Virus record (IMG/VR): IMGVR_UViG_3300037485_000957
Span: 1-53,296 of that record
Length of the DNA stretch: 53,296 nucleotides
Direction: 5' to 3' (one strand)
Source of the DNA: a virus
Lineage: Duplodnaviria > Caudoviricetes
The notes below the pieces were generated by a model. That model ran no database searches. It was not told where the DNA came from and worked only from the letters and a program-made list of their open reading frames with translations. Made by a program: the position numbers and the translations under genes. This document shows positions 8,165-39,963 of the stretch, piece by piece (within the stretch, counting starts at the first letter, position 1; every line of letters starts with the position of its first letter).

Positions 8165-8856
8165 ACGTAGGACTTTATTTAAGAGTGAGCACCGACGAAC
8201 AGCAGTCGGGCCTAAAGGTGTACATACAGCAAGCTAAAGACTTCTGCGAGAGATACGGCCACACATACACCGACCTATTCATTGACGAAGACGTATCGGG
8301 AGACAAAGAGCTACAGAAGCGCCCTGCAGGATCGAAGATATTACAGGCTCTTGAGTCAGGTAAGATACAGGGAATTGTTTCGCCAAACGTAACTCGTCTA
8401 TTCCGTAACTTGCGTAATGGTGTAAATACGATACATGAATTCGAGAATAAGAATTGGAAGATGTTCGTTTCAGATGGGTATGGGCTTCCTGTTGACATAT
8501 CATCAATCATGGGGTTCTCCATGTTCGTAGATCAACTCAAGTATGCACAGATAGAACGCATGCAGATTGCAGAACGTACCAAGAACGGAATGACCTATCG
8601 CCGTAACAACGGGAAGGCCACCTCTCACACCCCATACGGATACTATAGAATCGAAGACGATAAGACGCTTTATCATGATGATGATGAAATGGCTTATGTC
8701 AACGTAATGGTAGACCTGCACAACGAAGGAATGCCATACCTTGGCATCGCTAAGGAGCTAAACGAAGCTTCTGTCACCGCAAAGAAAGGAGGCTCATGGA
8801 CTGCCAAGACTGTTCGTGGCGTAATCCAATACCAACAATCCATAATGAAAAAATGA
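8161..8856 (+). CDS. Serine recombinase (resolvase domain plus short recombinase/HTH domain)
   Basis: Catalytic YLRVSTDEQ, DEDVSG, RLFRN, then ERTKNG, PYGY and IAKELN...GGSW...TVRGV. Confidence 0.9.
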   Translation: MNVGLYLRVSTDEQQSGLKVYIQQAKDFCERYGHTYTDLFIDEDVSGDKELQKRPAGSKILQALESGKIQGIVSPNVTRLFRNLRNGVNTIHEFENKNWKMFVSDGYGLPVDISSIMGFSMFVDQLKYAQIERMQIAERTKNGMTYRRNNGKATSHTPYGYYRIEDDKTLYHDDDEMAYVNVMVDLHNEGMPYLGIAKELNEASVTAKKGGSWTAKTVRGVIQYQQSIMKK

Positions 8857-35986: not shown

Positions 35987-36346
35987 TTATTCAAATGATT
36001 CATTTCCTTTAGCAATGTAGTAAAACAATTCAAGCGAATAAGGAACGCTGTAAATGCTGGCCTTTGGATACGCTCTGTCGATCTCCTCTATTGTATTCAT
36101 CACCTCAATGCGAGGCGCTGTATTAGGTAAGTCTACACCCATATGCTCAGCCATCTGCTTTTGGATAAGGATGGTTAGCTTACCCAAGGGCACTTCATGG
36201 GAGTCAGCAAAATACGATGCTCTTACATGGCCCTTCTCTGCCCACCACCTACGGGCAGCGTTCTCTAGGCATATCTCTTCCATCTTTACCTCAACACGCT
36301 TCCTATCTTGATAGGTGTCGTTTATCATCTTATCCTCTAATGTCAT
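35987..36346 (-). CDS. Hypothetical protein
   Basis: Coupled ORF. Confidence 0.6.
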   Translation of the reverse strand: MTLEDKMINDTYQDRKRVEVKMEEICLENAARRWWAEKGHVRASYFADSHEVPLGKLTILIQKQMAEHMGVDLPNTAPRIEVMNTIEEIDRAYPKASIYSVPYSLELFYYIAKGNESFE

Positions 36347-36756
36347 AGCGATAGGATTTTAATAGACAACCCATCCCCTCCTGATGTGTAGAATGCTGGC
36401 TCTATAACACACCCCTCGTCATCAATGACAAGCATACCCTTCTGTGATTGCGTATAGGCAACCTTCGCTTGCTCCTGCACTTCCTTAGTCTTATCGGCCA
36501 GCTCCACTACACGTGGGCAGTTCTTATAATCCCACTTGCCAGGATTGGATTTCTTCGTTACCTCAGCGCCATTGCATGCAAATGACTTCTCGGAATACTT
36601 ACTAGCCTCTACAAGTGCTTCATTGAACACTTGCTTCATCGAAGCCTCAAGCACTTTCTCTATGCGCTTAAAGTCAACGTATGCGCTTAACGCATTAGCA
36701 TCACCATCTTCTACTGCTGCAGCCATCGCCGCAATTTGATCTACAATGTTTTTCAT
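36343..36756 (-). CDS. Hypothetical phage protein
   Basis: 137 aa with a helical N-terminus. Confidence 0.7.
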   Translation of the reverse strand: MKNIVDQIAAMAAAVEDGDANALSAYVDFKRIEKVLEASMKQVFNEALVEASKYSEKSFACNGAEVTKKSNPGKWDYKNCPRVVELADKTKEVQEQAKVAYTQSQKGMLVIDDEGCVIEPAFYTSGGDGLSIKILSL

Positions 36757-36780
36757 GTTTGTTTTGTTTTAAGTTATTTG

Positions 36781-36826
36781 TCGCTGCATTAGCGAAAGAA
36801 TGTTACGGGTATAAGTAGTTATAAGC
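36781..36826 (+). other. Candidate attI-like primary site of the cassette array
   Basis: Core GTTATAAGC at 36818-36826 has no matching attC left half upstream; small TCGCT/AGCGA hairpin at 36781-36795. Confidence 0.4.
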
Positions 36827-37463
36827 AAGCTGCTACGTTCCTGCTCCGAATGAAAGTTCCCCATTGTTCAGCCATAGCTTTTGCCACCCCACTAAAAGTT
36901 TTTGAGCTTTCCTTTTGGCTTATGCTTACAGAATGGTATTTCTGTCCTCGTTTTTTCCCTCCAGTATTGCTCGGTAAATACGGCTTATAGTTGCTTTGAA
37001 TATCAGTCGGCTTTAATAGTGGCAAATTTTTCAACCACAATAAAGTTCGTTTACTGTATTCATGTCCATATTCGTATGGCTGTATCGCTTGGCTATGTTT
37101 TGGCAATTCAACTACTTTTAATGGTGTTGGGTTTTCAACTGCAATAAATTCAATCGGTGCATTAAGTAGTTCCAAAAACATAGCTTTCGCTTCCATTGCT
37201 TTTGAGTATCTATCTTGGCACAAATTACCTGCCGTTGGGTACATCCATCTTGCTCCAGCCTTACTCATATAAGTACAAGGCGGGTGTGCAATCATCATAT
37301 CGTATTTGCCACTATAAGCCTCTTTTACTGCATCGCCTACAATATGCCATTCGGGTTTATTACCGCTACATTCTTGTAGGTCGCAACTATAAGCCTCAAA
37401 TCCTAATTCTCGGAAAGCTCTGCAAACTTCTTGGCTCTCCTCACAAGCTATTAATATTTTCAT
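36819..37463 (-). CDS. Compact DNA cytosine-5 methyltransferase-like protein
   Basis: MKILIACEESQ, YSCDL, catalytic IAHPPCTY and AVENP motifs. Confidence 0.8.
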   Translation of the reverse strand: MKILIACEESQEVCRAFRELGFEAYSCDLQECSGNKPEWHIVGDAVKEAYSGKYDMMIAHPPCTYMSKAGARWMYPTAGNLCQDRYSKAMEAKAMFLELLNAPIEFIAVENPTPLKVVELPKHSQAIQPYEYGHEYSKRTLLWLKNLPLLKPTDIQSNYKPYLPSNTGGKKRGQKYHSVSISQKESSKTFSGVAKAMAEQWGTFIRSRNVAACL

Positions 37464-37548
37464 TTCAATTTAAGTTTTTAGTTAATAATCCGCAGCCAGC
37501 TTATAACAGCGGTTTGGCGGCATTAAAACGACCGCCAAGCCGCAACCG
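36819..37548 (+). mobile_element. Integron-like gene cassette 1 (methyltransferase cargo, antisense)
   Basis: Start core GTTATAAGC is the exact reverse complement of GCTTATAAC (37499-37507), which opens its attC-like site. Confidence 0.75.
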
Positions 37549-37556
37549 TTATACGC
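37499..37556 (+). repeat. attC-like site A
   Basis: GCTTATAAC-a-GCGGTTTGGCGG-loop-CCGCCAAGCCGC-aacc-GTTATACGC. Confidence 0.75.
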
Positions 37557-37594
37557 AAGCACTACATTCGTTCTCCGATTTAACTTTTGTGGAA

Positions 37595-38079
37595 GTAAAA
37601 AAGAAAATAAAAATTTACCCACGCTTTTAATAAGGTTTAATTACACTTTTGTTTAATCCGTATTCAATAGCATAATTAATACACTCCATCAGTGATGTTA
37701 TTGAGTTTGTTTTTGTTTTGTGTCCGTAATATTTCTCATCGTCATAATACAACTGCAAATCATTTTTGAACTTTGGAAAGAAGTATTTGCCACACAAATC
37801 AATTTCGGCAATCCACTCCGTTTCGTATTCAGGTAACCCTATTGTTAATCCATTTACCAATCCTTCTGTTTCAAAATGATTATCTAAAATGTCAGTTGTA
37901 TATATTTTAACTAACGCATTGCCTTCAAATCTTCCTTCGCAAAGTTCAATTAAATATTGCGTTGAAATATCGTTTTCAGATTTGAAGTAAACACCAAATT
38001 TTAAGTATTCGTTTGGTGTGTCTTTTGGTTTAAAATTTGTTTCCATAATTCCCTCCTAAATTTTTATTTTCTTTTTTAC
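37595..38079. repeat. Perfect 23-bp inverted repeat enclosing the cassette 2 gene
   Basis: GTAAAAAAGAAAATAAAAATTTA (37595-37617) and TAAATTTTTATTTTCTTTTTTAC (38057-38079). Confidence 0.9.
37627..38046 (-). CDS. Hypothetical protein (cassette cargo)
   Basis: 139 aa, AT-rich, GGAGGG just upstream of the ATG. Confidence 0.7.
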   Translation of the reverse strand: METNFKPKDTPNEYLKFGVYFKSENDISTQYLIELCEGRFEGNALVKIYTTDILDNHFETEGLVNGLTIGLPEYETEWIAEIDLCGKYFFPKFKNDLQLYYDDEKYYGHKTKTNSITSLMECINYAIEYGLNKSVIKPY

Positions 38080-38118
38080 CGTGTTTCAATTAAACATTCT
38101 ACTAAATCAACCGTGCCA

Positions 38119-38217
38119 GCGTATAACACGTGCTATAAGCAAGTTTGCCAATAACTTTTTCGGTAACTTGAACATTTTTGCAAGGCAAACCTGCTCATAG
38201 CACCATACGTTAGCAGC
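38119..38217 (+). repeat. attC-like site B
   Basis: GCGTATAAC-ac-GTGCTATAAGCAAGTTTGCC...GGCAAACCTGCTCATAGCAC-catac-GTTAGCAGC; arms pair at 18/20. Confidence 0.75.
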
Positions 38218-38221
38218 AATT

Positions 38222-38545
38222 TCACGATAGCCTCAAAGCCCTGAACCAATTCAATAATCGATTCTTTTCTCCAAGTGAATAACCCCACCTTCCTGTAATC
38301 AAAAAAGTAATAGGTAGGATCAGGATCATTAACAACATTGTCAGTGTTGCAAACGGCAGTGTTAATCTCATCCAGAAATTAACAGGCGTTTGTTCTTCGC
38401 AATAAAACTCAATGTTTAATTCAATAAACCTATCGCACAACTCCTCGCTACCAATATTCGAAAGCTCTGGAAATACTTTTTTGAAGTTCGGCATGTAATT
38501 AGCATAACCGTTTGACCAAGTCCTTCTTAATTTCCTGTACATCAT
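38222..38545 (-). CDS. Hypothetical membrane protein (cargo of incomplete cassette 3)
   Basis: 107 aa with one TM segment; its stop lies just beyond GTTAGCAGC. Confidence 0.65.
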   Translation of the reverse strand: MMYRKLRRTWSNGYANYMPNFKKVFPELSNIGSEELCDRFIELNIEFYCEEQTPVNFWMRLTLPFATLTMLLMILILPITFLITGRWGYSLGEKNRLLNWFRALRLS

Positions 38546-38586
38546 GATTTCGTTTCAAATTAAGTTTGGGGTGTGGGTGGCTGGAG

Positions 38587-39117
38587 TCAGGCTACAACCG
38601 TGTAGCCTAAACACCTTTTTAAATCATTGACAATATCTCGGTAGTGGTGCATTTCGCTTTCATTCGGAAACAATGATTGCAAAAAAGCAACATTTTCTTG
38701 CTGATAAACACCATACATATTTGACCTAGTTTCGTAACTGTACTGCGCATTTGCAAATCTATCACAAAGCTTTACATACTTTGCCCACATCGTTTTTCTG
38801 ATACCATCGTAATAAGCATCGTTTGCCCTTTCTTTTCGGTTCTTACCTTTTTCGTTGGTTACAGCGTAAACAATGTTCGCAACGGATGCTCCAGCAACTT
38901 GTTTAATATCGTTGTAGGTCATTCTACAATCTTCAATAGTATCGTGCAACCAACAAGCGTCTAATACATCGCCTTGCGCTTGCTCAGGGATGCAGTCAAT
39001 ATACTTTTGTGCAATCATTGCTACCATTGATAAATGTACCGAATAAGGTTTCCCATCGTATAAATGGTTTGTGTTGTTGTGTGCTTCGATTGCGAAGCTG
39101 ATTATTTCACTGTTCAT
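38587..39117 (-). CDS. HD-domain phosphohydrolase (SpoT/Mesh1-like small alarmone hydrolase)
   Basis: FAIEAH...YDGKPYSVHL...WLHDTIEDC...VKLCDRFAN. Confidence 0.8.
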   Translation of the reverse strand: MNSEIISFAIEAHNNTNHLYDGKPYSVHLSMVAMIAQKYIDCIPEQAQGDVLDACWLHDTIEDCRMTYNDIKQVAGASVANIVYAVTNEKGKNRKERANDAYYDGIRKTMWAKYVKLCDRFANAQYSYETRSNMYGVYQQENVAFLQSLFPNESEMHHYRDIVNDLKRCLGYTVVA

Positions 39118-39182
39118 ATTAAAAACTTCAATCTCGTTTCAACTCTATTTTCACTCTTACGTGACTCATCGCCTTTGAATTT

Positions 39183-39210
39183 AAAAGGGAGGAGATTACG
39201 CCCCTCCCTT
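39183..39210 (-). terminator. Intrinsic terminator after the 247-aa gene
   Basis: Minus-strand AAGGGAGG...CCTCCCTTTT. Confidence 0.6.
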
Positions 39211-39219
39211 ATGTTGTGA

Positions 39220-39963
39220 TTAAATCATATCCTCAGCGCCGTCGAAGAAGTCAGCAGGGAGATCGTCTGTATTAGGCAGCTCCGCTTTCTTCTTTGATGC
39301 TGGACGCTTCTCTTCTTCGAAGGAAGGGACAGGTACTTCTTTGCGTTCGTTAGTAAGAGGATTTACAGCAGGGATCGATTGGATACCAGCATCCATCATA
39401 GAGGCGAACTCAGGTGATTTCTTAATCTCCTCTTGCAACCACTCAGGTAGCGTCTTAAACACTTCCTCGTCATGCATAAGTGGAGAATACGATACCAATG
39501 GATTGATTGGCAGTGGAGCAGGAAAGCCCTTAGGGATAGGCATGAACGCTTTGATGTTAGCGTATGTCTTTGTCCCGTCCTTCGATGGCTCATGCACCAC
39601 GTTAATCATACACGCTTTACCAAGCAGGTTACGGAAGTCATAAGAAGACGCTTCTTTATCGGAGGCGAACGCCTTACCAGCAATACCTTCAATCATCTTG
39701 CGTAGTCCTGCCTTCTCGTTCATAGTACGAGTGTACTTACATCCCAGTACCATAGGCTTCTCAGGATCGCCTTCTTTGAATACTCGCATTTCTGTCGAGC
39801 TTTCAAATGTGAAACGCATTGTGTCTTTAAGCCCAGGGAATTGTCCCCCTTGCTCCTGATGACCAACGTGGATCATAGAATACAATACTGCGATTTGTGC
39901 TCCTGCGGGGAACAGCTCTTTGTCGAATGATGCACCAGACGTTGGTGCTGTGAATGGATTCAT
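39220..39963 (-). CDS. Probable single-stranded DNA-binding / replication protein
   Basis: LLGKACMINVVH...YANI motif and an acidic tail (TDDLPADFFDGAEDMI). Confidence 0.6.
   Translation of the reverse strand: MNPFTAPTSGASFDKELFPAGAQIAVLYSMIHVGHQEQGGQFPGLKDTMRFTFESSTEMRVFKEGDPEKPMVLGCKYTRTMNEKAGLRKMIEGIAGKAFASDKEASSYDFRNLLGKACMINVVHEPSKDGTKTYANIKAFMPIPKGFPAPLPINPLVSYSPLMHDEEVFKTLPEWLQEEIKKSPEFASMMDAGIQSIPAVNPLTNERKEVPVPSFEEEKRPASKKKAELPNTDDLPADFFDGAEDMI

Follow-up and report, generated by a model that had tools for sequence, protein, structure and literature searches.

Covarying ends and a frame shared by unrelated genes in a probable integrase-less row of integron-type cassettes of a Bacteroidota phage

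The IMG/VR virus record IMGVR_UViG_3300037485_000957 (Duplodnaviria; Caudoviricetes), analyzed whole as the window (53,296 bases; completeness rating 64%), carries an island of low guanine-plus-cytosine (GC) content in which small genes are arranged as a row of units separated by hairpins. The minus strand holds the genes surrounding this array, and GC content falls to 0.30–0.40 across 36750–39150 versus 0.45–0.47 in both flanks. In three of three related contigs (L198, L199, and L200), whose neighboring proteins are 41–96% identical to those of the window, homologues of the backbone genes at 39220–39963 and 36343–36756 are adjacent, 58–312 nt apart; thus, the 2.46 kb that lie between them in the window represent an inserted island. 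Region 36818–38232 is probably an integrase-less row of integron-type cassettes within this foreign low-GC island of a Bacteroidota phage and, as part of the same explanation, its cassettes would belong to a system with Xer-type tyrosine recombinase platforms in chromosomes. The original prediction, made on this DNA alone, had proposed that the cassettes share a common end scaffold around unrelated genes, which were placed into a pre-existing empty frame. The features of the region are given below, where ORF stands for open reading frame and R1 for the covariance model of the junctions between units.

36757..39219, no strand assigned: low-GC island (cassettes 1 and 2, ORF107, and an HD-domain gene) between two backbone genes, delimited by the GC dip and by comparison with relatives
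36818..37507, site strand plus: cassette 1, carrying a DNA methyltransferase ORF (37463..36819, minus strand)
36818..36832, plus: start arm of cassette 1 (GTTA core and extension), pairing with 37493–37507 at 13/15 positions, with mismatches at positions 10–11
37493..37507, plus: end arm of cassette 1 (extension and TAAC core), assigned by own-end pairing
37484..37571, plus: attC-like site 1 (R1, 63.8 bits, E 1e-12)
37548..38127, plus: cassette 2, assigned by own-end pairing, with an ORF of 139 amino acids (aa) without assigned function (38046..37627, minus strand)
37548..37620, plus: conserved 3' module of the cassette 2 frame, past the stop codon on the gene strand
37595..37617, plus: arm 1 of the inner inverted repeat (GTAAAAAAGAAAATAAAAATTTA), 23/23 complementary to 38057–38079
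38057..38079, plus: arm 2 of the inner inverted repeat, partner of 37595–37617
38080..38127, plus: 5' module of the cassette 2 frame, comprising the end arm and a leader that contains the TTTCAATTAAA motif; also found upstream of unrelated genes in L202, L203, L204, and L205
38104..38232, plus: attC-like site 2 (R1, 83.3 bits, E 2.1e-17)
38209..39160, plus: island remainder, with start arm GTTAGCAGC, ORF107 (38545..38222), and the HD-domain gene (39117..38587)
38553..38563, plus: the leader motif TTTCAAWTWAA in its third copy, located 8 nt before the start codon of ORF107 (which reads CAT on the plus strand, 38543–38545)

The hairpins between units (37508–37547 and 38128–38208) form part of junctions with a recurrent design. 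A loose regular expression proved too unspecific for finding such junctions and was followed by a hairpin scan and then by R1, built from 20 aligned junctions on which the pairing was counted for 18 model pairs. The window has exactly two R1 sites, which lie 533 nt apart on the plus strand (filters off, E up to 10); among 85 loci retrieved by means of the methyltransferase of cassette 1, R1 detects 33 sites, none of them at a locus where the methyltransferase is not cassette-borne. Rfam gives no match in the window. Site 1 consists, in order, of the end arm of cassette 1, a single A, the L stem (37509–37546) with its ATTAAAAC loop, the spacer AACC, and the start arm of cassette 2, the spacer of these sites being asymmetric (1 nt versus 4–5 nt). 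The L stem of site 2 pairs 38130–38149 with 38184–38203, is 90% complementary over 20 nt, and resembles the arms. Pairing in the L stem reaches 91% over the 20 junctions, with compensatory changes in 7 of the 11 stem pairs and a T.G pair kept in 16 junctions; the TAAC/GTTA pairs are invariant or nearly so in all 20, and the loops span 40–122 nt. Across the junctions, only these 4-nt cores pair, the positions beyond them being unpaired in 7, 13, and 15 of the 20.

The start of each cassette pairs instead with its own end. When positions 5–15 of the start were compared with the reverse complement of the end of the same cassette, matches amounted to 8.52/11 in 31 unique cassettes, versus 4.28 (standard deviation 0.29) after permutation, and none of 10,000 permutations was as good; the end-to-end covariation that had been proposed for the window is thus confirmed on a larger set. 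At least 8 of the 11 positions match in 25/31 cassettes. Position 11 never pairs (31/31): an A faces G in 27 cassettes and T in 4, this lack of complementarity having first been noticed on a set of 18 cassettes. Moreover, information is confined to the first and last 12–15 nt of the cassettes (27 unique starts and 25 unique ends), and the site joined as in the circular form folds with −43.9 and −43.1 kcal/mol, versus −32.2 and −33.8 kcal/mol in the array, with RNA parameters taken as a proxy. Own-end pairing, the pattern of conservation, and folding thus indicate that the covarying ends are halves of one site, which is whole only in the circular cassette, and, since conservation is limited to about 12–15 nt at either extreme, most of the scaffold originally noted is a recombination site split by linearization. 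In this first layer, which is general, the cassettes begin with GTTA and finish with TAAC, and about 11 further bases of the start pair with the cassette's own end around an obligatory mismatch at position 11. The excised circle would join both arms and, with the hairpin between them, would yield one long folded recombination site, presumably as single-stranded DNA, while the linear array would split this site and leave each cassette with look-alike covarying ends.

The resemblance between cassettes that had called attention to the scaffold can be assessed against this background. The starts are alike, with GTTATAAGCAAGC at 36818 (one base before the originally assigned 36819) and GTTATACGCAAGC at 37548, and the likeness of cassettes 1 and 2 extends past position 15, with 16 of 21 bases shared; its local score of 11 ranks sixth among 351 cassette pairs and is reached by 3/2000 shuffles. 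The likeness of the ends holds for the arms GCAGCCAGCTTATAAC (37492–37507) and GTGCCAGCGTATAAC (38113–38127), which are the inverted partners of the starts of their own units (16 nt at 88% and 15 nt at 87%, respectively), but not for their AT-rich remainder, in which the similarity of both ends as a pair is reached by 446/2000 shuffles. The proposed recurrence of a motif at 38553 also stands, as TTTCAAWTWAA occurs three times in the 53-kb window (37463, 38084, and 38553), always within the array, versus 0.32 expected, and 0/100 shuffles reach three copies. Chance similarity in AT-rich DNA agrees with the behavior of the AT-rich part of the ends, but as an explanation of the end resemblance it has next to no probability, since stem covariation, the leader-motif count, frame identity, and the own-end permutations refute it both for the arms and for the frame of cassette 2. 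A promoter reading of the leader motif was also considered and set aside, as the motif fits the Bacteroidota −7 box, TAnnTTTG, only loosely.

Cassette 1 illustrates how a gene can be joined to such an arm. Its ORF matches phrog_757, DNA methyltransferase (E 4.7e-50), and 36815–37515 is the only part of the 7 kb searched that matches Flavobacterium phage records (37 records, 78–80% DNA identity), these phages carrying rows of such units. The start arm, read on the minus strand, codes for the final methyltransferase codons and the stop, with the stop codon lying within TTATAAC; in classical integron cassettes, the stop codon is likewise often inside an AAC-containing box. A GCTTGCnnnTAAC-encoded ...AC-x-stop tail is present in 20 of 155 relatives, and two more have mutated versions of it. 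The tails of cassette-borne copies vary in length (GTFIRSRNVAACL, GNFIKSENVAACG, SSYACR, LLACC, TLACW, and SVVLTACT), and non-cassette relatives end in ...AEQWG or in unrelated short tails. As the tails are found only in cassette-borne copies, tail and stop are gifts of the arm, in agreement with the original proposal that they are encoded by the scaffold, and none of the non-cassette homologues compared carries the tail. The ends of cassette 1 are a shorter relative of those of cassette 2, and its methyltransferase continues into the arm, from which it acquires an extra tail and its stop. A quick tree with 76 rows places all 20 cassette-borne sequences in two clades, of 18 rows (support 91) and 2 rows (support 100), both nested among non-cassette rows, with a minimum of two changes. 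In addition, the same methyltransferase gene, at 92–96% aa identity, is found between different neighbors in nine contexts, and one hairpin type accompanies it in three independent contexts, yet follows another gene in L008. Two copies deviate from this pattern. In L007 (177–848), a methyltransferase cassette copy passes the usual stop into the next hairpin and would give a 223-aa product with a different tail, probably owing to a frameshift near the C-terminus, and in L014 (4001–4099), the frame from the usual start stops after 32 codons, so that the gene appears to be broken.

Related cassettes are also found in chromosomes, beside a recombinase gene. A methyltransferase cassette with 66% identity lies in the chromosome of Hymenobacter lapidiphilus, where 95 nt separate it from the 3' terminus of a gene for a tyrosine recombinase. 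R1 sites were found in 43 of 101 sampled genomes from the family of the Hymenobacter genome G001 and, among the matches listed, 13 of these 43 genomes (14 loci) have a recombinase homologue that is followed, 0.7–5.4 kb further downstream and in every case on its own strand, by such a site, while the other 30 R1-positive genomes have no recombinase neighbor among the matches listed. Long low-GC rows of small ORFs extend behind the recombinase gene. The array-linked recombinases score 181–210 bits against the integron-integrase model TIGR02249, below its cut-off of 265, and they lack the integron-integrase insertion, having three residues where VchIntIA has residues 202–247; the best solved relative is an archaeal XerA-type protein. 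The integron-specific insertion is reported to be not conserved across the whole of an integron-like subgroup (Smyshlyaev et al. 2021, PMC8138268). A second Hymenobacter recombinase copy (L174, 9352–10397; G001 contig C13) is 72% identical and matches in overlapping pieces, which suggests that it is frameshifted, and it adjoins another low-GC cassette island.

L003 differs from L001 by one extra 342-nt unit, located at the point where both share the same 12 bases, and the units are, therefore, mobile cassettes. Such units could also be viewed as small non-autonomous transposons with terminal inverted repeats, served by a transposase encoded elsewhere, given that every unit has 15-nt terminal inverted repeats and that units occur singly in chromosomes. 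This explanation is very unlikely, because no target-site duplication is seen beyond the shared arm, either at the L003/L001 polymorphism or at the Hymenobacter insertions, the units always adjoin a structured, covarying hairpin, and the linkage is to a tyrosine recombinase and not to a transposase. Thus, neither of the two hallmarks of a transposon or miniature inverted-repeat transposable element, target-site duplication and a cognate transposase, was found for these units.

Orientation distinguishes the phage copies from the chromosomal ones. In phage-type contigs, the longest ORF is antisense to the site in 28 of 29 cassettes; therefore, the site is upstream of the gene and the end of the gene abuts the cassette start. 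ORFs share the sense of the sites at the chromosomal loci found in the family of the Hymenobacter genome, in 20/20 cases upstream and in 13/14 downstream. In two Flavobacterium phage cassettes with N6/N4-type methyltransferases (L001, 3757–3883, and L002, 3179–3295), the start codon lies in the hairpin loop, and roughly 17 initial codons extend across the L'' and R'' boxes, which encode CDKTTVIAST and CQTRVSGST, respectively. These start codons and N-termini inside hairpin loops, together with a leader motif beside start codons, would agree with a different explanation, in which no site-specific recombination takes place in phages, the junctions are regulatory modules (a terminator-like hairpin with a promoter or leader), and the flanks provide short stretches of homology to general or phage-encoded homologous recombination, a role proposed for the promoter-stem-loop modules of T4-type phages. 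It would also agree with mosaic boundaries at several places (after TAAC, 7–8 nt into the hairpin, and at GTTA), with an island that looks acquired as one block, and with phage genomes in which, among those searched, no recombinase of the kind of the array enzymes was found. However, regulation predicts neither own-end pairing, nor the invariant unpaired position 11, nor the conserved T.G pair; the same sites occur in strict polarity behind the recombinase gene at the 14 chromosomal loci; and IntI1 recombined a site of this design from Polaribacter phage P12002L (Qi et al. 2023, PMC9892861). Homologous recombination alone is, therefore, considered improbable.

Apart from the arms, a second layer of similarity surrounds the gene of cassette 2. 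Over 65 bases from a point 5 nt ahead of GTTA, cassette 2 is identical to L089 at 64/65 positions, and in L089 this stretch lies beside an unrelated 228-aa gene. Sixteen metagenome contigs contain a 26-mer of this frame, and 11 of them have R1 sites on the matching strand; the ORFs beside the frame in these contigs, in L089, and in the window fall into eight families of 118–345 aa without mutual BLASTP similarity at E 1e-5 (10 script clusters, reduced to eight families after three truncated loci were merged by eye). The first 73 nt of the frame are 85–97% identical to the window in seven cassettes, with a mean of 89% over 28 pairs, and the gene bodies of frame-sharing cassettes align at 55%, a random level. 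The frame motif AGCGTGGG lies 0–3 nt past the stop codon in five of the eight families, 9 and 22 nt past it in two, and is missing in one. Five families have in common the 5' module with the leader motif, and those five have a perfect inverted repeat of 23, 22, 20, 18, or 15 nt near the ORF, which for the unrelated ORFs of L204, L209, L202, and L089 measures 22, 20, 18, and 15 nt, respectively. The common frame around unrelated genes that had been proposed is thus real for the cassette 2 family, with seven other cassettes sharing it. In this second layer, which is specific to one cassette family, about 75–90 nt downstream of the gene and about 80 nt upstream form a constant backbone, with the leader motif in the upstream part and one inverted-repeat arm on each side, tight against the ORF, and unrelated ORFs have been exchanged inside it.

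Regarding the entry of ORFs into this backbone, empty backbones might have come first, with ORFs loaded by a dedicated mechanism at the inner-repeat hairpin and landing in its loop, a process that would amount to the making of cassettes. This is a possible, though on present evidence rather doubtful, account. Perfect repeats of 23, 22, 20, 18, and 15 nt hug unrelated ORFs, with different sequences and the pairing kept; the identity between cassette 2 and L089 stops inside the repeat arm; AGCGTGGG follows the stop codon so closely in five of the eight families; and a non-cassette homologue of the cassette 2 gene (L086, 70% identical, in an ordinary operon) has the same C-terminus and neither frame nor repeat. 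On the other hand, the repeat is absent in three of the eight families, the shortest cassettes (160–250 nt) all have small ORFs and no frame beyond the arms, and no candidate enzyme was identified. Moreover, none of the 12 frame-bearing loci examined, which have ORFs of at least 100 aa, is empty, and repeat arms 4–34 nt apart gave no hits in IMG/VR, a search that did not cover gaps of at least 35 nt or the metagenome collection. Thus, of the proposal that genes were placed into a pre-existing empty frame, the shared frame and the unrelated genes stand, but the search for empty scaffolds yielded none among the frame-bearing loci with ORFs and no IMG/VR hits, and the frame may only be supposed to have existed before the genes. 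The 23-nt inner repeat, searched as an exact word, also had no hits in IMG/VR (a scan that may omit the window's own record), and is, therefore, not a repeated mobile end. The more specific version, in which the inner repeat is a dedicated gene-loading site and complete ORFs, cut near start and stop, enter the loop of the long A/T-rich hairpin of an empty backbone, is put forward tentatively and as slightly more doubtful still.

Several findings weigh against the explanation of region 36818–38232 as a row of integron-type cassettes with a shared frame. Own-end matches fall below eight in 6 of the 31 cassettes; in three of these, missed sites are suspected, as one L001 site found by the hairpin scan is absent from the R1 matches, and L089 looks like a hybrid cassette. 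The same methyltransferase gene is accompanied by five hairpins on one side (upstream) and by eight sequences on the other (downstream); exchange is, therefore, not limited to one crossover point, which the strict one-crossover rule of integrons does not predict. No tyrosine recombinase (PF00589) was found in the 53-kb window, from a record that is 64% complete, and neither tyrosine nor serine recombinases were found in three complete array-bearing Flavobacterium phage genomes, so that an enzyme acting on the phage copies can only be presumed. A small serine recombinase is encoded in the window at 8173–8616 on the plus strand (PF00239, 85.7 bits, within a 239-aa open frame); it was rejected as the cassette enzyme because it lies 28 kb from the array and has no counterpart in the three array-bearing Flavobacterium phages. 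The right part of the island has no terminal site, R1 giving no match beyond the two described (window, E<=10, filters off), and the start at 38209, which would open a "cassette 3", has no recognizable end, its best partner matching at 10/15 positions and lacking TAAC. Concerning the frame, the remaining three families have inverted repeats of only 11, 8, and 7 nt, and sharing of the 3' module follows by construction from the search with the 26-mer; therefore, only the differences between genes and the 5' module, common to five of the eight families, are informative.

The array can be compared with several known systems. In sedentary chromosomal integrons, such as that containing the Vibrio cholerae repeats, all cassettes have near-identical attC sites, and the crossover work of Hall and Stokes reportedly established the classical integron logic, by which a cassette takes its first bases from its own site. 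Like those integrons, the present family joins each of a set of unrelated genes to the same non-coding element, with complementary start and end. However, the complementarity extends over 15 nt versus about 7, one base is fixed as unpaired, the backbone lies on both sides of the gene, and an inner inverted repeat surrounds the ORF; moreover, the phage ORFs are antisense, and the linked recombinase lacks the insertion and scores below the TIGR02249 cut-off. In T4-type phages, promoter-stem-loop modules flank small genes of variable regions and are thought to promote their shuffling. These modules are likewise short, conserved, non-coding, and located between small accessory phage genes, but AAC/GTT cores, own-end covariation, and a link to a tyrosine recombinase are all missing from them. 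The sites of the present system have the constitution of attC, an imperfect inverted repeat (R''-L''...L'-R') with AAC/GTT cores and a variable loop, and the units have that of a circularizable element, in which the start pairs with its own end and pairing across the junction is at background. As in a cluster of attC sites lacking an integron integrase (CALIN), at least two close sites are found without an integron integrase nearby, the sites being defined here by R1 and not by IntegronFinder. In contrast to integron cassettes, in which the ORF has the orientation of the site and the site lies at its 3' end, 28 of 29 phage cassettes are antisense, and there is no adjacent IntI with the insertion, as would be found in a complete integron. 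CALINs are reported in phages, including one with methyltransferase genes in Polaribacter phage P12002L, for which calls by an attC model of the IntegronFinder or HattCI kind are given; attC2 of this phage was recombined by IntI1 (Qi et al. 2023, PMC9892861). Site 1 of the window and the P12002L junction share the same design and the same loop, and the P12002L CALIN, like the window, is described as an integrase-less row of small genes bounded by AAC...GTT folded sites, with methyltransferase cargo, in a phage of a Flavobacteriia relative. The parts of that report consulted contain nothing on extended pairing of own ends, on an unpaired position 11, on ORFs antisense to the sites, on a frame shared by unrelated genes, or on an Xer-type platform; its main text does not name Flavobacterium, and its supplementary tables list all 17 CALINs (Qi et al. 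2023, PMC9892861). No paper was found on the frame, on the inner repeat, or on an Xer-type cassette platform in Hymenobacter or its relatives.

Some further observations concern the island itself. In its remainder, the HD-domain gene matches PF13328 HD_4 (E 6.8e-9), and the PHROG matches in this remainder are phrog_36118 and phrog_990. At the intergenic spot occupied by the island in the window, the closest related contig (L198, 1393–1523) has a transfer RNA-like sequence with the T-arm GCGGGTTCGAATCCCGC, recognized by eye, and L199 has an additional small ORF; the spot appears to be an insertion hotspot. The L stem of site 2 (38130–38203, GTGCTATAAGCAAGTTTGCC with GGCAAACCTGCTCATAGCAC) resembles the cassette arms and both ends of the extra cassette of L003, and the L boxes of site 2 may imitate R boxes, or the site may be what remained when a cassette was emptied. 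The start codon of cassette 2 is preceded, 6 nt away, by GGAGG (window 38036–38056), and AGGAAGG or AGGGAGG is found in related frames; the use of Shine–Dalgarno sequences is unusual in Bacteroidota.

The assembly of integron cassettes from ordinary genes is an old open question, and the principal answer published for it is the group IIC-attC intron model. A near-identical backbone (85–97%) around at least eight unrelated genes represents a favorable case for studying cassette genesis. As two of the genes have non-cassette homologues, base-level mapping of the capture junctions is possible; one junction is found at the stop codon, in the cassette 2 gene, and the other gene, the methyltransferase, was read through into the site. 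If the inner repeat were a gene-loading site, families of cassettes would be made on one backbone, in antisense orientation and with their own leader, workable without an integron promoter, and the frame would offer a first sequence-level view of cassette genesis. The Xer-type site of Bacteroidota combines arms longer than those of classical attC with a fixed unpaired base, and the phage-borne cassettes of this system constitute a distinct antisense, putatively self-expressed class, through which anti-restriction genes, such as those for DNA methyltransferases, are traded between unrelated phages.

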